A stretch of DNA of 32,000 bases, from the NCBI RefSeq assembly GCF_000186885.1, contig NC_014972.1, forward strand, positions 3,270,001-3,302,000. The letters are read 5' to 3'. The notes below the pieces were generated by a model. It ran no database searches and had not been told where the DNA came from. It saw only the letters and a program-made list of their open reading frames with translations. The stretch comes from Desulfobulbus propionicus DSM 2032. GTDB taxonomy: Bacteria > Desulfobacterota > Desulfobulbia > Desulfobulbales > Desulfobulbaceae. Below, piece after piece: positions 1,325 through 28,153 of this stretch (positions are counted from its first letter, which is position 1; each line of letters starts with the position of its first letter). Made by a program: the position numbers and the translations under genes.

Positions 1325-1464
1325 TGATGGGCTCGCTGGAATTCCATACTTTTCAAAGCGATGTTACCATCGACCAGGAGGCAAGGCAAGCAATAGCGCC
1401 AAAAGAAGCCCCTTGCCGGGTTGGTCCCGCTGTTCATTTCCTTCCACCTGAGGTATACTCGGCC

Positions 1465-2826
1465 ATGCTTGCACAACTACCCCACAGTCCGCTCGCCGAG
1501 CGGATGCGCCCCACCCGCCTGGAAGATTTTGTCGGCCAGCGCCATCTGGTTGGCGAGGGCAAATTCCTCAACCAGCTGATCGACAGCGGCCGAATTCCCT
1601 CGCTGGTCCTCTGGGGGCCGCCCGGATCGGGCAAGACCACCTTGGCCACCATCCTTGCCCACGCCGTCTCTGCCCATTTCGTCTTTTTCTCCGCAGTACT
1701 CTCGGGGGTCAAGGAGATACGGCAGATCGTCGATCAGGCCAAGTCTGTCCATGAACAGGACGGCAGGCCGACCATTCTCTTTGTCGACGAAATCCACCGC
1801 TTCAACAAGAGCCAGCAGGACGCCTTTCTGCCCCACGTGGAAAGTGGCCTGCTGACCCTGATCGGAGCGACAACGGAAAATCCGTCGTTCCAGATCACCG
1901 CTCCCCTGCTCTCCCGCTGCCAGGTCCTGCTCCTCGCTCCACTCGACCGCAACGATCTCAAACAGGTCATGCGGCGCGCCCTCATCGATACCTCGGTCGG
2001 TTTCGGTGACGATCGTCTGACCATCGACGATCAGGCCCTCGACCTCCTGGCCGATACGGCGGACGGTGACTGCCGACGAGCGTTGAATCATCTGGAAACG
2101 GCGGCCGCCCTGACCCTGGAGCAGCTCAAGCGCCAGCCAGCGGCTGGAGAGGCAGAGCGAACGATCACCGTCGCCCAGGTGCGGGAAACACTGCAGCAAA
2201 AAACCCTCCGCTATGACGCCAGGGGCGAGGAACACTACAACCTGATTTCAGCCCTGCACAAAAGTCTGCGCGACAGCGATCCGGACGGTGCGGTCTACTG
2301 GCTGGGCAGGATGTTGCTCGGAGGCGAGGACCCACTCTATATTGCCCGACGGATGATTCGGTTTGCTTCCGAGGACATCGGCAATGCCGATCCACAAGCC
2401 CTGCAAGTGGCCCTAAACGGCCGTGAAGCCTACCATATGCTCGGTTCGCCAGAGGGCGAACTGGCACTCTATCAGGTGGCTGCTTATCTGGCCACCGCTC
2501 CGAAAAGCAATGCGGTCTACGTGTGCACCCATCGGGTACGGGCGGACATCGAACGTACGGGGTCCCTGCCGGTCCCCCTGCACATCCGCAATGCGCCGAC
2601 AGCACTGATGAAGGATTTTGGCTACGGCCACGGCTACCAATACGCGCACGACGACCGGGACGGTCTGGTGCTGCAGGAACACCTGCCTCCGGAGCTGGCG
2701 GGCCGCGTCTACTACGAGCCGACCACCCGCGGCTACGAGGCGGTGATCAAGGACCGATTGACCAAATGGAAACAAATACTCAAACAGCGAGCGCAACAGC
2801 ATGAACTGCAACAACGGAATAAATAA
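1465..2826 (+). CDS. rarA: Replication-associated recombination protein A (RarA/MgsA AAA+ ATPase)
   Basis: Lies within ORF 1216..2826. Walker A is [11 protein letters not shown] and Walker B is [10 protein letters not shown]. The MgsA-type C-terminal domain reads [42 protein letters not shown] moved the start to ATG 1465 ([26 protein letters not shown] about 11 nt upstream) because the 1216 extension overlaps the divergent cyclase gene. Confidence 0.93.
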
Positions 2827-3802
2827 GGGAAACGTATTATGGACCGTCCTGCTCCTCCTCGCTCTTCTCCTCTGGTGGGGCGAGGTTGAAGCGGCGGGCA
2901 TGCGGTTTATTTACACCAACGACAACCTCGGCGAACTCGACAGCTGTGGCTGACACCTGAACAAATTGGGCGGTCTGTCCAAAAAAGCATTTATAACCAA
3001 GACATTAACCAACGATTCGCACTACCCGGCCCTGATTGTCAACAGCGGCAACCTGCTGTTCAAAACCGATATTCTGCAGCCGGAGGAAGCTGAAACAGCA
3101 AGGATTGCCGCCGACGGCGTGTACCAGGCCACCCGGAAGACAGGGGCACTCATCGCCGGTGTAGGCAGCCGGGACCTGGCCGCCGGGACCGCCTTCCTGA
3201 GCCAATTCCATCAACCACCGCACTTTACCTGGTTGTCCCTCAACCTTGTTCATCCTTCCAACCGTCAGCCTCTGTTCACCCCGATTCATTGGCAGCAGGT
3301 GAATGGGATCAACATCGCGGTCCTGGCGCTGACCGACCACACCGCCCCTTCCGCGCAAGGCAACGATTTCCTTGCCCTTCCGTGGCAGCAATCACTGCCG
3401 GAGGTTCTGGCGCAGGTCGAGCAGCAGGCCGATTTCGTGCTGCTACTGTCCAACTATTCCTTGATCGATAATCAGGAAATCGCCCGCCACCACAGAGCCA
3501 TCGACCTCATCCTCCAGTCGGGCCATGCCATCGGCAACAGGACCCCGCTTGTGGTCAACAACACCCTGATCGCCCAAACCGAAACCCGCGGCAAATACCT
3601 GGGGGTGCTGAATGTGGACTGGAATGGCCATGGCCGCTGGCGCGAGGGCCAGCCAGGCGCGGCGACACCGGATGACAAGCCGGCGTCAACCTACAGTAAC
3701 CGGTTCATTGCGTTAAAACCTTCGATCACCAATGATCCCGAGGTGGAGGCCATTGTCCAGCAGACCAAGAGGCGCTTGGACAGCCATCAGGCCGGGCGAT
3801 AG
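2801..3802 (+). CDS. Secreted 5'-nucleotidase/metallophosphoesterase-like protein with a candidate selenocysteine (TGA 2951..2953)
   Basis: The ORF track lists only 2966..3802, a TTG start right after a TGA. The same frame is open upstream from ATG 2801: [50 protein letters not shown]-[TGA]-HLNKLGGLSKKAFITK.... That gives a signal-peptide-like N-terminus and a TND..G..CG motif continuous with the downstream body (ALIVNSGNLLF, NIAVLALTDH, DFVLLLSNYS). A SECIS-like hairpin follows the TGA. If the TGA is a true stop, the CDS is 2966..3802 or the gene is a pseudogene. ATG 2801 overlaps the rarA 3' end by 26 nt; ATG 2900 is an alternative start but would remove the signal peptide. Confidence 0.6.
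2951..2982 (+). promoter_or_regulatory. Candidate bacterial SECIS element (UGA plus downstream stem-loop)
   Basis: UGA 2951..2953 is followed by CAC. After 12 nt comes a 17-nt hairpin: UUGGGC (2966..2971) / loop GGUCU (2972..2976) / GUCCAA (2977..2982), six pairs including one G-U. The GGUC of the loop starts 18 nt after the UGA. As I recall the E. coli fdhF SECIS (UGA CAC GGC CCA UCG GUU GCA GGU CUG CAC C), it has the same UGA-CAC context and the same GGUCUG apical string at the same distance. Confidence 0.55.
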
Positions 3803-3841
3803 AAATCGGCCGACCTACACTGCCACTAACCGATAACCAAT

Positions 3842-3873
3842 AAAAAAGGCCGCCTCAAGAGGCGGCCTTTTTT
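3842..3873. terminator. Bidirectional rho-independent terminator between convergent genes
   Basis: A6 run (3842..3847), stem GGCCGCC (3848..3854), loop TCAAGA, stem GGCGGCC (3861..3867), T6 run (3868..3873). It sits between the + CDS ending at 3802 and the - CDS ending at 3893. Confidence 0.88.
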
Positions 3874-3892
3874 ATTGGTCGAAGCAATGAAC

Positions 3893-4813
3893 TTAGCAGC
3901 CGAATGCCTTCTGCAGGTTCGGAATGGTCTGTTTCTTGCGGCTCATCATGCCGTCGATCCACATGGAGTTGCCGGAAAGCTTCTTACCGAAAGCGCCTTC
4001 GATCAGAGCGGGATCATCGGAGAGCACCATCAAGTCGGTGCCTTCCTTGACCACGTCGGTGAGCATCAGCAGGACGGAATGCCGTTCGCTGCCCTTTTGC
4101 TCTTTCATGGCATTGTACAGGGCATCGCGCATGTCGGCTACCTGATCCAGGGTGGCAAGCTCGAGCTGACCGACGCCGACTTTTTTACCCTTCATATCGA
4201 AATCCTTGTAGTCGCGATGGAGCAGGTCCATGGCCGGAACGCCGGCAACGGCACTCTTGGCCTTGAGCATCTCCATGAACAATGCTTCGGTGTCCTTGAC
4301 ATCGGCGATTGCGGCCAATTCCTTCACGGCCTTCTTGTCGGCGTCAGTGCAGGTCGGGGACTTGAAATTGACGGTATCGCTGAGGATGGCGGCCAGCATC
4401 AGACCAGCAACCTTAGGATCAACCTTCACGCCTTCCAGATCATAGAGGATCTTGAGCACGGTACCGGTGCAGCCAACCGGCATGTTGCAGAAGAAGATCG
4501 GTTGATTGGTGGTCACATCACCGATTTTGTGATGGTCGACGACGGCCACAACCTCGCCGGCGGCCAGATTGTCCGGAGCCTGAGCCAGATCGCTGTGGTC
4601 AACCAGGGCAATTTTCTTGCCGGTGGCATCGGTCAGGGTCTCGGGGGTGGCAAAACCGAACTGCTTCAACACCATCTCGGACTCGGGATTCAGCTTGCCA
4701 GCAACGGCGGGAACATAATCCTCACCCTTGGCCTTCATCAGCGCTGCATAAGCGATGGCGGCGGTTACAGAATCGGTATCCGGACTTTTGTGACCTACAA
4801 CATAAACAGACAT
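3893..4813 (-). CDS. ppaC: Manganese-dependent inorganic pyrophosphatase, family II (DHH/DHHA2)
   Basis: 306 aa. N-terminal VVGHKSPDTDSV, DHH motif VVAVVDHHKIG, and DHHA2-type C-terminal half (DFDMKGKKVGVGQLE...SVLLMLTDV...MSRKKQ). The + ORF 3875..4933 is its antisense shadow. Confidence 0.95.
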   Translation of the reverse strand: MSVYVVGHKSPDTDSVTAAIAYAALMKAKGEDYVPAVAGKLNPESEMVLKQFGFATPETLTDATGKKIALVDHSDLAQAPDNLAAGEVVAVVDHHKIGDVTTNQPIFFCNMPVGCTGTVLKILYDLEGVKVDPKVAGLMLAAILSDTVNFKSPTCTDADKKAVKELAAIADVKDTEALFMEMLKAKSAVAGVPAMDLLHRDYKDFDMKGKKVGVGQLELATLDQVADMRDALYNAMKEQKGSERHSVLLMLTDVVKEGTDLMVLSDDPALIEGAFGKKLSGNSMWIDGMMSRKKQTIPNLQKAFGC

Positions 4814-6797: not shown

Positions 6798-7607
6798 TCA
6801 TGATCCAAAGAAACGGGAGAAAAAGCCTTTCTTCTGCACGTCCATAAAACGGTACGGCACGTCTTCGCCCAGGAAACGGTCGACAATATCGAAATAGGCC
6901 TCACCGGCATCGCTCTCCTCGGCCAGGGTCACCGGTATGCCCGAGTTGGAGGCTGCCAGCACCAGCTTGGACTCGGGAACAACGCCAAGAAAAGGAATAG
7001 CAAGAATTTCACACACATCGTCGGCACTGAGCATATCGCCCCGTTCCACCCGCACCGGGTCGTAGCGGGTGACCACCAGATGCACCTTCACCGGCGGCTG
7101 GTCCTGTTCGGCCCGCTGGGTTTTGCTGGCCAGCATCCCGATGATCCGATCCGAATCCCGCACCGAGGAAATCTCGGGGTTGGTGACCACCAGGGCTTCG
7201 TCCGCATAGTACATGGCGGTCATCGCGCCCTTTTCAATCCCCGCCGGCGAATCGCAAACGATATATTCAAAGCTCTGCCGCAGGGTGGCTATCACCTCGC
7301 CGACCCCTTCCTTTGACAGAGCGTCCTTGTCGCGGGTCTGCGAGGCCGGGAGGATATACAGGTTGCCCACCCGTTTGTCCTTGATCAGGGCTTGATTGAG
7401 CGAGCCCTCGCCATGGATGACATTAAGCAGGTCGTAGACCACCCTCCGCTCGCAGCCCATGATCAGATCAAGGTTGCGCAGACCGACATCGAAATCAATG
7501 ACCACCGTTTTATATCCGCGTACCGCCAGGGCTGCCGCAACGGCCGCGCTGGTGGTGGTTTTTCCTACTCCGCCCTTGCCGGACGTCACAACGACCACTT
7601 TAGACAA
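6798..7607 (-). CDS. minD: Septum site-determining ATPase MinD
   Basis: 269 aa. Deviant Walker A SGKGGVGKTT, plus DFDVGLRNLDL. TTG start at 7607 preceded by AAGGAGGG at about 7 nt. Confidence 0.97.
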   Translation of the reverse strand: MSKVVVVTSGKGGVGKTTTSAAVAAALAVRGYKTVVIDFDVGLRNLDLIMGCERRVVYDLLNVIHGEGSLNQALIKDKRVGNLYILPASQTRDKDALSKEGVGEVIATLRQSFEYIVCDSPAGIEKGAMTAMYYADEALVVTNPEISSVRDSDRIIGMLASKTQRAEQDQPPVKVHLVVTRYDPVRVERGDMLSADDVCEILAIPFLGVVPESKLVLAASNSGIPVTLAEESDAGEAYFDIVDRFLGEDVPYRFMDVQKKGFFSRFFGS

Positions 7608-8749: not shown

Positions 8750-10057
8750 TCAAAGACATTGGAGCCAGCCGATACTCCACATGCAGTGGCCGCAGGGTAC
8801 ACGACTGCCGTAGCAGTCATGCATGCCTAGGAGATTGGCATTGACCAGATCGGCACAGGGCGCCGAGGTGCAGCTCCAGCAAGGAGCGTACTCGCTGTGC
8901 CCGACCTCGATCCGAAAGGCGGTATATTCCGCTTTTTGCCAGATAGCCTCCAGCGATTCATCCTCGATGGAGCCCACAACGCGCTTGTTCACCCGGATAC
9001 TGCCGTGATTGACCTGACTGGGGCAGGTGTGCCATAAAAAATGACAGGGCATGACCTTGCCGTCTTTATCGATGAAGACCGCGTCGTCGTCGATAAAGGG
9101 GCATCTCCGGTGGCCATTGGCCGGCGCGTGGAGCGGCGGCAGGAACAGATCGATCCCATGTTTGCTTGCCGTCAGCCGGGCGCGGTGAAAATGAGCCTCG
9201 ATTTCTCCCATGTCGCGGTCGCTCTGCGCCACCAGATTGGGAAAATGAAGCGTGAGATCCTGTTGCTTGGCTTCCTGGCGCATGGCGTCTCCGAGTTGGA
9301 CGACCAAGGCATCTGCCGCACTCTTGGAGAACTTGAGCTGCGCAACGGGCAAATCCGCCAGGTTCACCCCTTGCCCCTTGGCCGCCGCCGACCATTTGGC
9401 AAAAAGGTTGGTTGCCTCACGACTGTTGGGATTGAACAGGCTGTATTCGCCCAACGAGCCATCGTAGGAAAACAGGTGACTGACGATGATGAAATCGACC
9501 TGATGCTCGCCGGCCCATGCCACCACGTCCGACAATTGGTGCAGTGTCTCCTTGCGGAGAACCACCTCAAGGCCAATGCGAACGCGCCGCTGGCTTGCTG
9601 CTCTTGCCTGTATCAGATGGGCAATCGCCTTGGTCACCGAGGAGCGTTGATGTCCGCCCCGGTTGCGCTCCTTGTCCTCGTCCGCATCCAAACTGTCCAA
9701 TGACAAGCACACGGTATCAAGCCCAGCCTCGATTAAGCGCACGGCGCGGCCGTGATTGAGCAGCAACCCATTGCTCTGGAAGCCGATGCGGCCATCAGGA
9801 GGCATCACCGCTCGGGCGAGGGCGATCATTTCTTCCAGGTCAGGGTGGAGCAGGGGCTCACCGAGCCCGTTGAGCACGAGGAATTCGGTGTGCGACAGGG
9901 AGGCGGTCGCCAGCTTTTTGAAAAGCGCCAGCGGCAGTTCCCCTTCCTCAATGCAGCTTCCCTCGGAAAATTTCAAGCACATGGGACACTGCAAGTTGCA
10001 GCGGGTGGTCAATTCAACATAGACCTTTTTCGGGTATGGGGACAGCATGATGGTCAT
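8750..10057 (-). CDS. Radical SAM enzyme with C-terminal SPASM/twitch-type auxiliary cluster domain
   Basis: 435 aa. CX3CX2C motif at TTRCNLQCPMC and GGE-like LNGLGEPLLH. The C-terminal part has CPFIDDDAVFIDKDGKVMPC (CX13GX4C), then CWSCTSAPC and CGHC. The start could instead be the second ATG at 10048. Confidence 0.88.
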   Translation of the reverse strand: MTIMLSPYPKKVYVELTTRCNLQCPMCLKFSEGSCIEEGELPLALFKKLATASLSHTEFLVLNGLGEPLLHPDLEEMIALARAVMPPDGRIGFQSNGLLLNHGRAVRLIEAGLDTVCLSLDSLDADEDKERNRGGHQRSSVTKAIAHLIQARAASQRRVRIGLEVVLRKETLHQLSDVVAWAGEHQVDFIIVSHLFSYDGSLGEYSLFNPNSREATNLFAKWSAAAKGQGVNLADLPVAQLKFSKSAADALVVQLGDAMRQEAKQQDLTLHFPNLVAQSDRDMGEIEAHFHRARLTASKHGIDLFLPPLHAPANGHRRCPFIDDDAVFIDKDGKVMPCHFLWHTCPSQVNHGSIRVNKRVVGSIEDESLEAIWQKAEYTAFRIEVGHSEYAPCWSCTSAPCADLVNANLLGMHDCYGSRVPCGHCMWSIGWLQCL

Positions 10058-10162
10058 TCAAGAAAACAATTACAATCAGACACAGGCGATCGGCTTGACG
10101 GCTTCACTAGTCGCGAAAATGATGCCCTCGGCCAGGGCGGTCTCGTCGTTCCTTGACCGAGA

Positions 10163-10393
10163 TCAGCTGATCCCCCCCTCAACTTCGCTTTGCTTCGGCA
10201 CCCGCCCCACGCACTTGACCTGACCGTCGACAACGACTGCAGGCGTAGAAAAAACGCCGAGCCTGGCAAACTCTTGAAAGTCCTTTACCTTGATGATCGT
10301 GGCCGCAATGCCTTTCGCCGCCACCGCCGCCTCCACAACCTTTTGCGTCTTTTCACAGGAAGCGCATCCTGGTCCACAGATCTTGATGTCCAT
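10163..10393 (-). CDS. Small thioredoxin-fold protein (redox-active disulfide protein 2 / MTH895-ArsE-like)
   Basis: MDIKICGPGCASCEKTQKVVEAAV...FSTPAVVVDGQVKCVGRVP: a CxxC right after the first beta strand and the cis-Pro TP motif typical of this about 77-aa family. The track start at 10405 adds MESN. I prefer ATG 10393 because the GGAG inside those extra codons sits about 6 nt upstream. Confidence 0.85.
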   Translation of the reverse strand: MDIKICGPGCASCEKTQKVVEAAVAAKGIAATIIKVKDFQEFARLGVFSTPAVVVDGQVKCVGRVPKQSEVEGGIS

Positions 10394-10567
10394 ATTGCTC
10401 TCCATCTGATAGCTTCAACAAAAAACCACGGCACATGCGCGCTTCTTCACCGCGCCCCTGCCCAGGCGGCATTGGCGATACAGGGAAGCCGCTCGGGCCG
10501 AAGCGTGATCGACCCGCTCCGATTTCCTCTCCACAAAGCAAGCCACATGCCTAGCCGTTCTATTTGC

Positions 10568-10596
10568 TTGACAAGAAAACATGGTTGATCTACCAA
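10568..10596 (+). promoter_or_regulatory. Candidate sigma-70 promoter and operator for arsR (possibly leaderless)
   Basis: TTGACA (10568..10573), 17-nt spacer, TACCAA (10591..10596, weak -10). The arsR ATG at 10604 has no SD and lies about 7 nt after the -10, which suggests a leaderless mRNA. The imperfect palindrome GGTtGATCtACC (10583..10594) spans the spacer and -10, where ArsR/SmtB operators commonly sit. Confidence 0.35.
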
Positions 10597-10603
10597 ATGA
10601 CAC

Positions 10604-10939
10604 ATGAAAAAACAACCACCGACCGACAAAGAAATGGCACTCATCGTGGCAAAGGCCAACGTCTTGAAGGCGTTGGGGCATCCCACCCGCCTGTGGATGG
10701 CGGAGCAGCTTGTTGATGGCGAAAAGTGCGTATGCGAATTGGCTGAATTCATTGATGCCGATTTTTCCACCATTTCCAAACATTTGTCGGTCCTTAAGCA
10801 GGCAGGTGTCGTCGAGGATGAAAAGCGCGGCAAGCAGGTATATTATCGTCTCAAAGTTCCCTGCGTTCTCAAGTATATGTCCTGCGTTGAAGCGGTGATC
10901 AAGACCACCGTCAAGGAGCAGGTGGAGATGCTGACCTGA
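10604..10939 (+). CDS. arsR: ArsR/SmtB family metalloregulatory repressor
   Basis: 111 aa. LKALGHPTRLWMAEQLVDGEKCVCELAEF carries the CVC metalloid-binding motif, followed by the wHTH STISKHLSVLKQAGVVEDEKRGKQVYYRL. Confidence 0.9.
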   Translation: MKKQPPTDKEMALIVAKANVLKALGHPTRLWMAEQLVDGEKCVCELAEFIDADFSTISKHLSVLKQAGVVEDEKRGKQVYYRLKVPCVLKYMSCVEAVIKTTVKEQVEMLT

Positions 10940-10998
10940 TCAGGTCGTTATTTTTCACCCTTTACAGGGTTAATTGACCAAACAAGCAAGGACGAGCT

Positions 10999-12297
10999 AT
11001 GGAATGGAGAGATGAGTGGAAATATCTACTGTTGATTATCGGTGTTTTTCTCGCCTGTTTTTACCTGCCGGTGGGGATGGAGCGGTTCGACAACGCCATG
11101 CTCGAAGCCTTGCACCTCGTCAAGTGGTATGCGCGTGAGCATGTGCTGCTGTGCCTGGTACCGGCGTTTTTCATAGCCGGTGCAATTGGCGTGTTCGTCA
11201 GCCAGACCTCGGTCATGAAATACCTCGGACCAACTGCCAACAAGATGGTGGCGTATGGAGTGGCCGCTGTTTCCGGCACCATACTGGCCGTGTGCTCCTG
11301 CACCATCCTTCCCCTATTCAGCGGCATCTACAGGATGGGGGCCGGCCTTGGGCCAGCGTGCGCTTTTCTCTATTCCGGTCCGGCGATCAATGTGCTGGCC
11401 ATCATTCTCACCGCCCGCATCCTTGGCACCGAAATCGGCATCGCCCGGGGGGTGGGAGCCGTTCTGTTCAGCGTGATCATCGGGGCCTTGATGGCCTTTC
11501 TTTTTCGCGGGGAAGAGCAGGAAAAAGCAGCCGTTCACATGGCCTTGCCCGAAGAGGAGGTCAAACGATCTCTGTGGCAGAACGCGCTCTATTTTGCCTC
11601 GATGGTCGGGGTTCTGGTGTTTGCCAACTGGGGCAAGCCGCAGGAGCCTGTTGGCGCCTGGGCAACCATCCATGCCATGAAATGGATCATCACCTCCGGA
11701 TTTGCCGCCGCCTTGGGGGTGATCCTCATTGCCTGGTTCAACATGAAGGCATGGAAAGTCGGCCTGATTGCCATTCCCGTGGTGGCACTGGCACTACTCT
11801 TCCCTGAGCAACCTGTCGTGGCCTTTGCCGCCGGACTGGTCGGGCTTTCCATGTTCACCAGCACGGACAAGGATGAATTGGGCGACTGGTTCTCTTCCTC
11901 ATGGGGCTTCGCCAAACAGATTTTGCCGCTGCTGCTGTTTGGCGTGTTGATTGCGGGCGCCTTGTTGGGCCGGGTTGGCCATGAAGGGTTGATACCCTCG
12001 GAATGGGTGGCCAAGGCCGTGGGCGGCAATTCCTTTCAGGCCAACTTTTTTGCTTCGTTTGCCGGAGCCTTCATGTATTTTGCGACCCTCACCGAAGTGC
12101 CCATCGTTCAGGGGCTGATCGGCAGCGGCATGGGCAAGGGACCAGCGCTGGCCCTACTCCTCGCGGGGCCCGCTCTGAGTTTGCCCAACATGCTGGTGAT
12201 CAACAGTGTCCTTGGGGTGAAAAAAACCGTCACCTTTGTTGCCTTGGTGATCGTGATGGCCACCTTGAGCGGCATGTTGTTCGGTTCGTTTTTTTAA
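10999..12297 (+). CDS. COG0701-type permease with vicinal-cysteine CSC motif (ArsP-like putative organoarsenical/arsenic permease)
   Basis: 432 aa and polytopic, with two repeated halves separated by a charged loop (RGEEQEKAAVHMALPEEEVKR). TILAVCSCTILPLFSGI resembles the CxC motif of ArsP-type permeases. It lies directly downstream of arsR. The permease call is solid; the substrate is inferred. Confidence 0.8.
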   Translation: MEWRDEWKYLLLIIGVFLACFYLPVGMERFDNAMLEALHLVKWYAREHVLLCLVPAFFIAGAIGVFVSQTSVMKYLGPTANKMVAYGVAAVSGTILAVCSCTILPLFSGIYRMGAGLGPACAFLYSGPAINVLAIILTARILGTEIGIARGVGAVLFSVIIGALMAFLFRGEEQEKAAVHMALPEEEVKRSLWQNALYFASMVGVLVFANWGKPQEPVGAWATIHAMKWIITSGFAAALGVILIAWFNMKAWKVGLIAIPVVALALLFPEQPVVAFAAGLVGLSMFTSTDKDELGDWFSSSWGFAKQILPLLLFGVLIAGALLGRVGHEGLIPSEWVAKAVGGNSFQANFFASFAGAFMYFATLTEVPIVQGLIGSGMGKGPALALLLAGPALSLPNMLVINSVLGVKKTVTFVALVIVMATLSGMLFGSFF

Positions 12298-12479: not shown

Positions 12480-12506
12480 GAACAAGCCGGTTGTTCTATT
12501 ATTTGC
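12480..12506 (+). terminator. Weak terminator-like hairpin between the convergent permease and acr3
   Basis: GAACAA (12480..12485) / loop GCCGG / TTGTTC (12491..12496), followed by TATTATTTGC on the plus strand. The stem is short, and the hairpin overlaps the acr3 stop region. Confidence 0.3.
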
Positions 12507-13584
12507 TGCGGACATGGCAGACCCCGGTCAGCGTGCGTTGTGCGTGAGGGAAATACTTGTTTCTGAGCCGAAGGGCGACGTTCACCAAGGCGATGAGGAC
12601 CGGAACTTCGACCAGGGGGCCGATGACTGCGGCAAAAGCCTCGCCGGAATTAATGCCGAACACGGCGATGGCCACGGCAATGGCCAGCTCGAAATTGTTG
12701 GAGGCGGCGGTGAAACTCAGGGTCACGGTCTGCTCGTAAGTGGCGCCGACCTTCATAGACAGGAAGAAGGAGACGAAGAACATCACCAAAAAGTAAATGG
12801 TCAGGGGCACGGCGATGCGCAGCACATCAGACGGCAACTGGACGATGTATTCGCCCTTGAGCGAGAACATCACCAGGATGGTGAACAGCAGGAACATGAG
12901 GGTCAGGGGACTGATCCGGGGAATGAACACCTCCTCGTACCACGCCCTGCCCTTCAGCTTGATGCCGAGCAAACGGCTGAGCATGCCGGCAATGAAGGGA
13001 ATGCCCAGATAGATAAACACCGACTGACCGATCTCAGCGATGGAGACATCGACCACCGCCCCTGCTAAACCAAACCAGCCGGGGATGACGGTAATGAAGA
13101 TCCAGGCGTAAAGGGAAAAGAACAAAACCTGAAAAATCGAATTGAAGGCCACCAGCCCGGCGCAGTACTCGGTGTCGCCGTCGGCCAGATCGTTCCAGAC
13201 AATCACCATGGCGATACAGCGGGCCAGACCGATAAGGATCAGGCCGACCATGTAATGCTGTTGGCCGGAAAGCAGGGCGATAGCCAGGAGGAACATCAGC
13301 ACCGGCCCGATCACCCAGTTCTGCACCAAGGAGAGCAGCAGTACCCGGCCATTGCGAAAGACCTGGCCCAACTGCTCGTATTTGACCTTGGCGAGCGGCG
13401 GATACATCATCATGATCAGGCCGATGGCGATGGGAATGTTGGTGGTGCCCACCTGAAAGGCGTTGATCACCTGCTGCACGCCGGGAGCGGTGTAGCCCAG
13501 CATGACACCGGCGAACATGGCGAGAAAGATCCACAAGGTGAGGAAGCGATCCAAAAAACCGAGCTGTTTGGCCTGTTGCGACAT
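12499..13584 (-). CDS. acr3: ACR3 family arsenite efflux transporter
   Basis: Lies within ORF 12499..13680. Start moved to ATG 13584 ([24 protein letters not shown]..., AAGGA RBS upstream). Family strings include [12 protein letters not shown] and [24 protein letters not shown] (conserved Cys). Confidence 0.93.
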
Positions 13585-13651
13585 GGTGCATCCTTGTGCG
13601 GAAGATTGAGCAGAAAAGTACGCTGACAGTGCGACGTCCGTCTTTTTTTTA

Positions 13652-13680
13652 TTTTTAATCCACCAAGACGGAGGCGTCAA
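13652..13680 (-). promoter_or_regulatory. Candidate sigma-70 promoter of acr3, bracketed by an inverted repeat
   Basis: The minus strand reads TTGACG (13680..13675), 17 nt, TAAAAA (13657..13652), about 65 nt upstream of the acr3 ATG. The 8-bp inverted repeat TCCGTCTT (13637..13644) / AAGACGGA (13665..13672) flanks the -10 region and could be an operator. Confidence 0.45.
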
Positions 13681-25806: not shown

Positions 25807-25939
25807 TTGACGTTCTCCTTGCGTAACAATCACGCCGCATCACGAACGGCTTTTTTTTCGCTACCAGATAACGCGCAATAGCGCAATGGCAAAATCACAA
25901 CTCTTTGAAATTTTAAATATATTCATTTGCACAAAAAGT

Positions 25940-25955
25940 TGGCACACGGTTTGTT
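25940..25955 (+). promoter_or_regulatory. Candidate sigma-54 promoter P1 for the 26138..29266 operon
   Basis: TGGCAC-ACGGT-TTGTT: a perfect -24 box with correct spacing, but the -12 element reads GT instead of GC. An AT-rich tract (25901..25938) lies immediately upstream, and a tandem GCGCAAT repeat sits at 25873..25887. Confidence 0.4.
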
Positions 25956-26017
25956 TACACACTGACAGCTGTTTTCTTGAACCGGGAAACGCACTCCCCC
26001 GTTGCAGAAAAAGAGCC

Positions 26018-26059
26018 GATCTGAGCGCCCAGTCTCCCCCAACTGGTAGCGCTCAGATC
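26018..26059. promoter_or_regulatory. Perfect 11-bp inverted repeat / extended hairpin in the operon control region
   Basis: GATCTGAGCGC (26018..26028) pairs with GCGCTCAGATC (26049..26059). An inner CCAGT (26029..26033) pairs with ACTGG (26042..26046), leaving loop CTCCCCCA. No U-tract follows. It is either an RNA leader structure (if P1 is used) or a DNA operator/UAS (if P2 is used). Confidence 0.5.
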
Positions 26060-26075
26060 CCATTCGTGACCAACC

Positions 26076-26091
26076 CGGCACCAGACCTGCC
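26076..26091 (+). promoter_or_regulatory. Alternative candidate sigma-54 promoter P2
   Basis: CGGCAC-CAGAC-CTGCC has the GG and GC dinucleotides at canonical spacing. The predicted start is about 36 nt before ATG 26138. The same bases form the 7-bp hairpin CCCGGCA (26074..26080) / TGCCGGG (26088..26094), so the match may simply reflect the palindrome. Confidence 0.35.
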
Positions 26092-26137
26092 GGGATGCAC
26101 AAGCCAACAAGCAAGACATCAAAAGAGGAGAACACAA

Positions 26138-26437
26138 ATGAAGAAACGATTACTGCGGTTATGGTGGGCGTTCCTGACCCTGGTGCTGTTTGCTCCGAGC
26201 CTGTCCCTGGCGGCGGGTGGCGGGAAAAGCGCCCCCATTGTCATTGTTGCCGATACGCGCAAACTGGACGGCATCATGGCTTGGTGGGCCAACTTGTACA
26301 ACGAAAGTCACGTGTACTTCATGATCCTGACCATCATCATCATTCCCCTCACCGGCGTGATCTTCGGTGTCCTAGCGGACATCATCATGGGTTGGATCGG
26401 CATCGATCTGAAATCCCGCGAACTGGCTGAACATTAA
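26138..26437 (+). CDS. Small secreted/type-I membrane protein (99 aa), first gene of the envelope operon
   Basis: Lies within ORF 25886..26437. ATG 26138 is preceded by AAGAGGAG. Signal peptide MKKRLLRLWWAFLTLVLFAPSLSLA|AGGG, a short periplasmic segment (APIVIVADTRKLDGIMAWWANLYNESH), then one C-terminal TM helix (VYFMILTIIIIPLTGVIFGVLADIIMGWI). Confidence 0.8.
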   Translation: MKKRLLRLWWAFLTLVLFAPSLSLAAGGGKSAPIVIVADTRKLDGIMAWWANLYNESHVYFMILTIIIIPLTGVIFGVLADIIMGWIGIDLKSRELAEH

Positions 26438-26458
26438 TTCGATTTCAAGGAGACCCTC

Positions 26459-27514
26459 ATGGACTGGCTTTATATTCTCATGCCCATTGCCGGTGTTAAG
26501 ATTTTCTGGCCCGGCCTCATTATCCTCGGTATCGGCGTTGGTATCATTGGCGGTTTCTTTGGCATGGGCGGTGCCTGGATGGTGACCCCCGGCCTTAACA
26601 TTCTCGGTTTCCCCATGGCCTTTGCCATCGGCACCGACATCGCCCACATGGCCGGAAAATCACTCATCTCCACCATGCGGCACGGCAAGTTCGGCAACGT
26701 TGACTACAAACTCGGCATGATCATGCTGGTCGGCACGGTGGTCGGCTTCGAGTGCGGCGCCCAGATGGTTATGTGGCTGGAGCGCCTTGGTTCGGTGGAA
26801 AAGGTTGTCCGCTGGATCTATGTCGGCCTGCTGCTGTTCATTGCCTGGACCGTCTTCCACGATGTGGCCAAACGCAAGGCCAAAGAGAAGGCTGCCGCTG
26901 AAAAAGGCGAGACCCTGGAAGCCGGCGCCACCGGTGTCGAGTGGCACAAGACCCTGCACAAGATCAAGATCCCGCCGATGGTCCATCTCAAGGCCGCTGG
27001 CATCTACTGCTCCGCCTGGCTGCCGATCTTCGTCAGTTTCCTTACCGGTTGGCTGGCCGGTATCCTCGGTATCGGCGGCGGTCTGATCCGTATGCCCGCC
27101 CTGATCTACATGATCGGTTGCCCGACCCATGTTGCCGTCGGCACCGACCTGTTTGAAGTGGCCATTTCCGGTCTGTACGGTGCAGCCACCTATACCTTCA
27201 AGGGCCGGACCGAACTGGTCGCCGCCATGGTCATGCTCGTCGGCGCCGCCATGGGTGCCCAGGTTGGCGCGGTCGCCACCAAGTACATCAAGGGCTACGG
27301 CATCCGTATCATCTTCGGCTACGCGGTTCTCGGCTGCATGGCCTCCATCCTGATGAAGCTCGTCCAACCCTGGCTGCCGCAATACAAGGATCTGCTCAAC
27401 AACATGGCCACCATCACCGTTCTTGGCCTGATCACCGCCATGTCGGCCTACATCTTCATCAAGATGGTCCAGGGCGTGAAGAAGGAATTGGCCATGAAAC
27501 AACAGAAAATTTAA
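26459..27514 (+). CDS. TauE/SafE (sulfite-exporter) family anion permease, long-loop variant
   Basis: 351 aa with 4+4 TM architecture. Both halves carry GGFFGMGGAWMVTPGL and GILGIGGGLIRMPALI repeats. The central charged loop reads KRKAKEKAAAEKGETLEAGATGVEWHKTLHK. AAGGAG RBS upstream. Confidence 0.88.
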   Translation: MDWLYILMPIAGVKIFWPGLIILGIGVGIIGGFFGMGGAWMVTPGLNILGFPMAFAIGTDIAHMAGKSLISTMRHGKFGNVDYKLGMIMLVGTVVGFECGAQMVMWLERLGSVEKVVRWIYVGLLLFIAWTVFHDVAKRKAKEKAAAEKGETLEAGATGVEWHKTLHKIKIPPMVHLKAAGIYCSAWLPIFVSFLTGWLAGILGIGGGLIRMPALIYMIGCPTHVAVGTDLFEVAISGLYGAATYTFKGRTELVAAMVMLVGAAMGAQVGAVATKYIKGYGIRIIFGYAVLGCMASILMKLVQPWLPQYKDLLNNMATITVLGLITAMSAYIFIKMVQGVKKELAMKQQKI

Positions 27515-27538
27515 TCCGGATCGCATAAGGAGACCAGA

Positions 27539-28153
27539 ATGAACGTGAAACAGATACTGCTCACCATGGCCGCGGCCGCCATGGCCATGACGCTCACGGC
27601 ATGCAAGGAAGATTACGGCAAGGTGGAACAAGGTCGGGCCATCGCCTTTGACAAGGACAAGAAAGAGGTTACCCTGATCCATGACAGCGCCATGGATCCC
27701 CAGAAACCGGTGTACGATGTCCTGCCTCCCTCGGTGTTCAAGCTGCCGACCGATCCCAAGGAAACAGGCCCCGAACCCAAGGCCGGGCAGCGTTTGAAGC
27801 TGGACACGGACAAGAAAATCATCGTGATCTTCGACACCAATACCCAGAAAATCGTCGAGGTGCCGATCACCATCGTGGATCTGCAACAGCCCGTCGACAA
27901 GGAGCATCCGCTGGTGTATGACAAGGCCGAGAAGAAGGCCAAGAAGTTCCCGGCCGTGGACAAAGAGAAGAAGACCATCACCATTTACTCCGGTCGCCAG
28001 AAAATGCTCTGCACCTTCTCGGTCCCGGACCAGTACTTCAGCTATCCTGACAGCACCTGGGACGCAGGCGATGAAGTACGGCTCTACTACAAGACAGCTG
28101 GCCAATCGCTGCGGTTCATGAACATCTCCAAAACCGATATCTTCAAGAAGTAA
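27539..28153 (+). CDS. Lipoprotein of unknown function
   Basis: 204 aa. Signal peptide with lipobox (AMAMTLTAC). The mature part is Lys/Asp-rich and beta-rich. AAGGAG RBS upstream. From memory it may belong to a Desulfovibrio-type DUF lipoprotein family, but I cannot verify this. Confidence 0.85.
   Translation: MNVKQILLTMAAAAMAMTLTACKEDYGKVEQGRAIAFDKDKKEVTLIHDSAMDPQKPVYDVLPPSVFKLPTDPKETGPEPKAGQRLKLDTDKKIIVIFDTNTQKIVEVPITIVDLQQPVDKEHPLVYDKAEKKAKKFPAVDKEKKTITIYSGRQKMLCTFSVPDQYFSYPDSTWDAGDEVRLYYKTAGQSLRFMNISKTDIFKK

Follow-up and report, generated by a model that had tools for sequence, protein, structure and literature searches.

An in-frame UGA in Despr_2835 of Desulfobulbus propionicus, very likely a selenocysteine codon in a secreted, short-form UshA-like protein

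The gene Despr_2835 of Desulfobulbus propionicus DSM 2032 raises the question of whether the UGA codon in front of it is a true stop, or a selenocysteine (Sec) codon inside a longer gene. We analyzed a stretch of 32,000 nt around this gene (NC_014972.1, positions 3,270,001 to 3,302,000; hereafter the window, with coordinates counted from its first base), for which a preliminary description made from the sequence had proposed the second answer. The public annotation covers 2966-3802 only (Despr_2835; ADW18969.1 / WP_015725494.1) and describes a "hypothetical protein" of 278 residues. GenBank, RefSeq and the gene callers all start the gene after the TGA at 2951-2953, at a TTG that lies 12 nt further on (2966), from which the frame is open to a TAG at 3800-3802. 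The same frame is also open for the 50 codons between an ATG at 2801 and the TGA. Every coordinate that had been given for the ATG, the TGA, the TTG, a hairpin behind the TGA and its spacing of 18 nt proved correct in the sequence, and the suspicion that callers of open reading frames (ORFs) truncate the protein was borne out by a public record that holds just the 278-residue tail. With a probability of about 0.92, we read 2801-3802 as one gene, encoding a secreted, 333-residue, short-form UshA-like (seleno)protein with hairpin-directed Sec at position 51. The comparisons described below predict that Despr_2835, rather than encoding a cytoplasmic hypothetical protein of 278 residues, is part of the gene for a secreted selenoprotein of 333 residues, whose N-terminus is encoded by the 50 codons that look like an "orphan" ahead of the annotated start.

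Comparison of homologues across the TGA provided much of the evidence for this reading. A scan of a genome collection with the single protein gave only one match, a distant one from Ignavibacteriaceae (L001). A protein search with the read-through sequence retrieved 124 relatives, nearly all of about 280 residues and covering 83% of the query, and these relatives begin at (M/L)GGLSKKA, which is the same false start as that of Despr_2835. The nucleotide comparison comprised 31 loci counting the window, representing 28 distinct sequences, together with six loci that encode longer forms of the protein (L042-L047), for a total of 37. The stop in the Sec column was TGA in all 37, never TAA or TAG, and protein identities among the TGA-bearing sequences ranged from about 40% to 99%. 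Upstream of the TGA, the homologues encode a signal peptide followed by the conserved sequence R-(L/F)-I-Y-x-N-D-N-L-G-E-L-x-x-C-G, which over the whole set of 37 loci takes the more general form Y-x-N-D-x-L-G-E-L-x-x-C-G. The signal peptide that had been proposed for the upstream codons begins with charged residues, has a hydrophobic core and ends in small residues, and the same features were seen in 31/31 homologues; no twin-arginine motif was found on reading the sequence of this segment (2801..2896). Conservation of the 50 upstream codons in homologues had been put forward as a test of the idea, and we found the amino acids kept with synonymous variation of their codons. For example, 29 of 30 sequences share an Arg that is written with 5 codons, and a Tyr and an Asp, each present in 30/30, are written with 2 codons each.

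Downstream of the TGA, the sequence carries a constraint at the level of the nucleotides. The 17-nt hairpin, UUGGGC-GGUCU-GUCCAA in the window, overlaps the codons for L-G-G-L-S-K, and in the related loci its core, TGGGCGG(T/C)CTGTCCA, is invariant save for one base. The Gly-Gly-Leu-Ser codons of the hairpin had a codon entropy of 0-0.21 bit, whereas the 108 other columns that are conserved and degenerate averaged 1.13 bit, and only 1.9% of these fell below 0.25 bit. The RNAalifold consensus was a 6-bp stem with a 5-nt loop. Five of its pairs never vary, and the sixth is U-A in 16 sequences, C-G in 9 and a C.A mismatch in 3.

Relatives that carry Cys in place of Sec served as a control on this constraint. 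When 1.8 billion cluster representatives were searched exhaustively with a profile, four relatives with N-terminal extensions were recovered. Three of these are long Cys forms (P0177, P0193, P0250) that read ...GETEPCGC....GG(L/M)(S/G)(K/R)(K/R)..., and the fourth is a short Cys form (P0218) with C-G-S-C. In the alignment C49 and G50 are invariant, and the Sec column is occupied by Cys in all three long forms, which read as the preliminary description had given them (..G.LEPCGC....LGGLARRA..) and whose Cys aligns with the TGA. Their genes have TGC or TGT at the position of the TGA, one codon downstream in the case of the short C-G-S-C form. The Cys forms encode GG(L/M)(S/G/A) with different codons for the last three residues (GGT CTC TCG, GGC ATG TCC, GGG CTT GGC and GGA TTG GCC), and the hairpin cannot form in any of the four genes. 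Because the Cys forms encode the same peptide without a hairpin, neither the peptide nor codon bias accounts for the nucleotide constraint, which goes with the UGA. The RNA is thus conserved beyond the needs of the protein, and specifically in the UGA members, as expected of a selenocysteine insertion sequence (SECIS). About 82 of the best 150 cluster representatives start exactly at the false start, indicating that Sec forms dominate the family. From these comparisons, the in-frame TGA at 2951-2953 very likely encodes selenocysteine, with a putative recoding hairpin behind it.

The arrangement in the window is that of a SelB-dependent SECIS, in which an in-frame UGA is followed within tens of nucleotides by a stem-loop with apical G and U. 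The preliminary description had likened it to the element of Escherichia coli fdhF, and most of this likeness held against the actual E. coli K-12 sequence (UGA CAC GGC CCA UCG GUU GCA GGU CUG). Both elements have the hairpin just 3' of the UGA, GGUCUG beginning 18 nt after it (at 2972 in the window), Gly-Leu codons at +7/+8 and a UGA-CAC context. The CAC is not conserved in the family, however, so this part of the resemblance is a coincidence. The two elements also differ in the sequence of the stem, and in a loop that is a 5-nt GGUCU closed by C-G in the window and GGUC closed by A-U in fdhF. Unlike fdhF, the predicted fold of the window hairpin has no bulged U, and the UshA-like family has no conserved lower stem reaching the UGA. 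Apical stability is similar, at -6.4 kcal/mol for the minimal 23-nt hairpin of the window (z -3.1) and -5.7 kcal/mol for that of fdhF (z -0.39), and a 71-nt fold of 2940-3010 was no better than shuffled sequence (z +0.46). Since the authentic fdhF apical hairpin is likewise not distinguishable from shuffles, folding energy is not a useful criterion here. Rfam gave no match over the whole window at the gathering threshold, nor in 2900-3060 at E<=10, which says little either way because the element is short and lineage-specific. Taken alone, the TGA and hairpin of this window form a weak pattern, hardly beyond chance; it is the comparative evidence that puts the pattern far beyond chance. A second TGA followed after 18 nt by a GGUC-loop hairpin (TCGCG-GGTC-TGCGA) occurs at 7314-7348 on the plus strand, and was rejected as a chance look-alike lying antisense to a gene for a MinD/ParA-type ATPase (minD-like; 6798-7607, minus strand). 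A scan of the window for other ORF pairs joined by a single TGA returned dozens, as is typical of a G+C-rich genome, none of them convincing.

The preliminary description had left open whether this Sec family was already catalogued, and it is: the family is not new. A group denoted "COG0737, UshA-like", with a CxU motif, entered the lists of selenoprotein families with the ocean-metagenome survey of Zhang and Gladyshev in 2008 (PMC2398784), where 76 Sec sequences and 92 Cys homologues were counted, and it appears again in reviews of 2022 (PMC9312934) and 2026 (PMC13188914), the latter citing the curated model NF041198. With U written as C, the read-through protein matched this NCBIfam model (UshA_like_PCGU, "UshA-like (seleno)protein") at 286.8 bits (cut-off 275, E 2.9e-85). 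The window protein has S-C-G-U at the C-G-(U/C) column of the model. The residue before the Cys is thus Ser, and it is Gly in close relatives, unlike the Pro of the model name, which is unconserved in Desulfobulbus-type members. A second curated family, NF049981 (UshA_like_Sel_2, "UshA-like (seleno)protein family 2"), also uses an UshA-like scaffold, but its motif is CxxU rather than CxU, and the window protein scored 36.8 bits against its cut-off of 140.

The best-scoring stretch of the window protein covers positions 16-276 of the 519-position NF041198 model, and the protein lacks the full-length architecture. Long forms match over nearly all of the model, with 520 bits over positions 43-518 for the Sec protein P0118 and 569 bits over positions 6-519 for the Cys protein P0193. 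They share with the window protein the N-terminal UshA-like domain and the signal peptide, and with its gene the invariant SECIS hairpin. At about positions 280-519 of the model they go on to a coiled linker and then to a domain related to cytochrome c554, which carries four CXXCH motifs and forms the C-terminus. The window protein has neither, and its sequence contains no CXXCH motif. By its predicted sequence, it is a member of a short-form subgroup, as are some 100 or more database relatives. The organism itself is documented as a Sec user with 8 selenoproteins (Peng et al., Table S2, PMC5029168). Three findings had been named in advance as speaking against Sec, namely a genome without the sel machinery, upstream codons without conservation, and a column with neither Cys nor Sec, and none of the three refutes the proposal, with the machinery judged from the published table. 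The comparisons demonstrate a predicted recoding element that is under selection in a single gene, in a documented Sec user and in a curated selenoprotein family.

Other explanations of the locus have to account for the same observations. If the annotation were right, TGA 2951 would be a true stop, with a secreted peptide of 50 residues before it (2801-2953) and a cytoplasmic protein of 278 residues after it, starting at TTG 2966. GenBank, RefSeq and every gene caller read the locus in this way, gene callers report the upstream piece of 45-53 residues as a separate ORF in related loci, and elsewhere in the window UGA serves as a normal stop codon. Such a division is nevertheless highly improbable, given that the two pieces share a frame and are joined by TGA in each of the 37 loci, that the Cys-form relatives are continuous across the junction as single proteins, and that the signal peptide is encoded in the upstream piece, as are motif I and the first strand of the fold, which align to UshA residues 33-48. 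No Shine-Dalgarno motif was seen in the sequence before TTG 2966, and the nucleotide constraint after the TGA would be left without explanation. Even further from what we observed is a decaying pseudogene with a nonsense mutation, or a TGA produced by sequencing error. In one genome, an in-frame stop together with degenerate catalytic residues can resemble decay. The same TGA, however, recurs in independent assemblies, in at least 28 distinct sequences and across the whole range of identities given above, and both halves of the gene keep their amino acids through synonymous change, as under purifying selection. The TGA is also present both in the closed D. propionicus genome and in a Logan assembly made separately; we regard either possibility as negligible.

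The UGA could also be read through without Sec, for instance if a near-cognate tRNA placed Trp or Cys there, with the hairpin acting as a stimulator of read-through. In other systems, read-through of a stop codon can be promoted by a hairpin downstream of it, and Sec was assigned in this protein from sequence and not by measuring selenium. We consider this explanation as improbable as a true stop at 2951. The column alternates between UGA and Cys codons only, which is the classic Sec/Cys pattern, and the loop and spacing match the SelB-binding element of fdhF. The documented use of Sec by the organism (PMC5029168) and the curation of the family as a selenoprotein family (NF041198, PMC2398784) likewise favor Sec.

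Several points weigh against a single Sec-containing gene, or limit how much it can be made to explain. The assignment rests on sequence rather than on detection of selenium in the protein. The hairpin is short (6 bp, -6.4 kcal/mol) and fits no Rfam model, and its covariation is modest, being confined to one pair among related sequences, so that the Cys-form control is the stronger argument. The protein clears the NF041198 cut-off by a small margin, as its match is confined to the N-terminal half of the model and the haem domain is absent. No selA, selB, selC or selD, and no tRNA, was found in the 32-kb window; the presence of the Sec machinery therefore rests on the published table (PMC5029168). 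In addition, two loci have no Cys two residues before Sec, one reading G-S-G-U (L029, 1540-1554) and the other C-S-G-U (L021, 1252-1266), so that the CxU spacing is not universal and a selenenylsulfide between Cys49 and Sec51 cannot be indispensable throughout the family.

The fold of the protein could be traced with profiles and structural models. Pfam gave no significant match for the read-through protein, and none to Metallophos. A family profile compared with the PDB matched the N-terminal domain of E. coli UshA (E 5e-12) and SoxB (E 2.5e-9), and hhalign against the E. coli UshA sequence gave a probability of 98.5%. The structure modelled was that of the short Cys-form relative P0218, standing in for the window protein. 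Its AlphaFold model (predicted local distance difference test, pLDDT, 84.7; predicted template modelling score, pTM, 0.82) matched UshA in Foldseek (1ush, E 2e-18, template modelling score 0.64), with matches to CD73 and SoxB as well. The alignment to UshA stops near residue 356 of 550, where the window protein ends too, and the C-terminal nucleotide-binding domain of UshA is absent. The relation to SoxB is one of distant homology only, and the window protein scored far below the equivalog models of both enzymes (17.6 against a cut-off of 600 for UshA, and 36.2 against 550 for SoxB, TIGR04486).

The window protein shares with UshA and SoxB a homologous N-terminal domain fold, a predicted periplasmic secretion and the Asp of motif I (D41). 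It differs from UshA in that most of the metal-binding and catalytic residues have been replaced. We take the metal ligands of UshA to be D41, H43, D84, N116, H217, H252 and Q254, and the catalytic pair to be H117-D120, a numbering that fits the UshA sequence. The earlier impression that the metal ligands are degenerate was confirmed residue by residue against the E. coli enzyme (Table 1). C49 and G50 fall in an insertion just after motif I in this alignment, adding a C-G-U loop that is missing from UshA and that would therefore be placed beside the former metal pocket.

A mechanism for the gene can be outlined from the established bacterial Sec pathway. With a ribosome at UGA 2951, the hairpin at 2966-2982 would lie just outside the mRNA channel, and its GGUCU loop would recruit SelB.GTP.Sec-tRNA(Sec) while the UGA is in the A site, so that Sec would be inserted in place of termination. 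The protein would then be exported via the general secretory (Sec) pathway. Its working site would be the C-G-U loop after the remnant of motif I, probably as a periplasmic redox or chalcogen-binding centre; C-x-U is plausible as the redox or working centre. In the long forms, the c554-like four-haem domain at the C-terminus would pass electrons to C-G-U, and the short form of D. propionicus, which is without this domain, would need a separate partner.

Table 1. Features of the UshA-like selenoprotein locus in the window, and the window residues found at metal-binding and catalytic positions of E. coli UshA
Feature	Position	Strand	Details
mgsA/rarA (AAA+ ATPase)	1327..2826	+	Pfam MgsA_C, AAA; start set from locus L004
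Full coding sequence of the UshA-like selenoprotein (predicted)	2801..3802	+	333 codons and TAG stop, Sec at codon 51
Signal peptide, Sec-type (predicted)	2801..2896	+	read from sequence; cleavage site approximate
Metallophosphoesterase motif I remnant	2921..2929	+	D-N-L for D-x-H (hhalign against UshA)
C-G-U motif	2945..2953	+	codons 49-51, TGT GGC TGA
SECIS-type hairpin	2966..2982	+	6-bp stem 2966-2971/2977-2982, GGUCU loop 2972-2976
Two-way intrinsic terminator	3838..3878	both	A-run, 8-bp G+C stem, U-run; between the selenoprotein gene and the convergent pyrophosphatase
Manganese-dependent inorganic pyrophosphatase (ppaC; DHH/DHHA2)	3893..4813	-	convergent, downstream
UshA D41			window D, retained (hhalign)
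UshA H43			window L (hhalign)
UshA D84			window N (hhalign)
UshA N116			window S (hhalign)
UshA H117			window R (hhalign)
UshA D120			window A (hhalign)
UshA H217			window N (hhalign)
UshA H252			window possibly H242, alignment ambiguous (hhalign)

Examination of the gene neighborhood suggested how the gene is expressed. The last 26 nt of mgsA overlap the start of the selenoprotein gene (2801-2826), and similar overlaps occur in L041, L043 and L047. The terminator downstream is a perfect 18-bp palindrome (-29.1 kcal/mol, z -8.5) that was missed by a consensus terminator scan. The overlap with mgsA and the strong terminator indicate that the selenoprotein gene is probably co-transcribed with mgsA, as the last gene of the unit. 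Counting the window, mgsA is the upstream neighbor in ten loci (L002, L003, L004, L041 and L043-L047), which include long and short forms. Long forms occupy the same place, in the order mgsA-X-ppaC, in L043-L046, and mgsA is upstream in L044 and L047 too. Since the chromosomal place is the same, the D. propionicus gene looks like the same gene minus the haem domain.

Around mgsA itself, the upstream gene of L002 (9298-9852) encodes only 184 residues with the MgsA_C domain alone, and abuts a GAF/guanylate-cyclase gene; this mgsA may be truncated, or its start miscalled. In the window, 1-1324 on the minus strand corresponds, by comparison with L004, to the 5' part of a GAF/guanylate-cyclase-domain gene that runs off the end, and the plus-strand ORFs at 74-943 and 936-1451, which have no family matches, are probably spurious antisense ORFs.

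Elsewhere in the window, the minus strand at 8750-10057 encodes a radical SAM/SPASM "putative metalloenzyme maturase" (TIGR04311, 473 bits, cut-off 400), and the roughly 940 nt after this gene (10058-10998) contain no ORF of 140 residues or more. An ArsP_1-type permease gene (10999-12297, plus strand) adjoins one for an ACR3 arsenite efflux transporter (12499-13680, minus strand; TIGR00832, 456 bits). The permease was considered as a selenoprotein in its own right, being distant kin of SO_0444, which has Sec members, and was rejected with a score far below the cut-off and no in-frame TGA. A run of three plus-strand genes at 25886-28153 encodes a DVU0150-family protein, a TauE/SafE sulfite-exporter-like membrane protein and a DUF4881 protein, and is flanked by sigma-54 activators and histidine kinases.

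The sources consulted on the UshA-like (seleno)protein family give no biochemical function for it, and the neighborhoods of some relatives offer a lead. In L038 (1-3054), a Cys form follows selD (TIGR00476, 260 bits, cut-off 125) and then yedF (TIGR03527, 203 bits, cut-off 110), and in L040 (883-3085) a Cys form stands directly after yedF (191 bits). The yedF gene is thus directly upstream in 2/3 of the long Cys-form genes with readable surroundings, preceded by selD in one. A long Sec form in L042 (5001-9160) lies near a YedE/TsuA-like transporter, which scored below the cut-off, and a rhodanese. The context in L039 is different, and the ten loci with mgsA, counting the window, show that neighborhood only. 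Contexts suggestive of selenium or sulfur therefore number 3 among about 14 that were read, which we deem too few to conclude from. The reviews searched list YedE, YedF, DUF3343 and LysR_Se as selenium genes predicted from their neighborhoods, and do not name the UshA-like family among them. That the family is a periplasmic component of selenium (or sulfur/selenium) handling is accordingly a speculative suggestion, and we would at present rate it as more doubtful than probable by a wide measure.

For the field, nothing here is categorically new, as the family, its CxU motif and the curated model all existed before. The analysis corrects the annotation of Despr_2835, and the same error affects well over a hundred relatives in the databases. 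The family is also a clean example of an enzyme scaffold in which the metal site has been dismantled and a Cys/Sec loop stands in its place. The selD-yedF neighborhood of some Cys forms provides a testable hint on function. If the suggested role in selenium handling were true, the dismantled phosphoesterase pocket with its C-x-U would act outside the cell, reducing or binding an oxidized species of selenium or sulfur that is to be taken up. The long forms would be fed through their haems, and the short form of D. propionicus would be a haem-less derivative of that enzyme.

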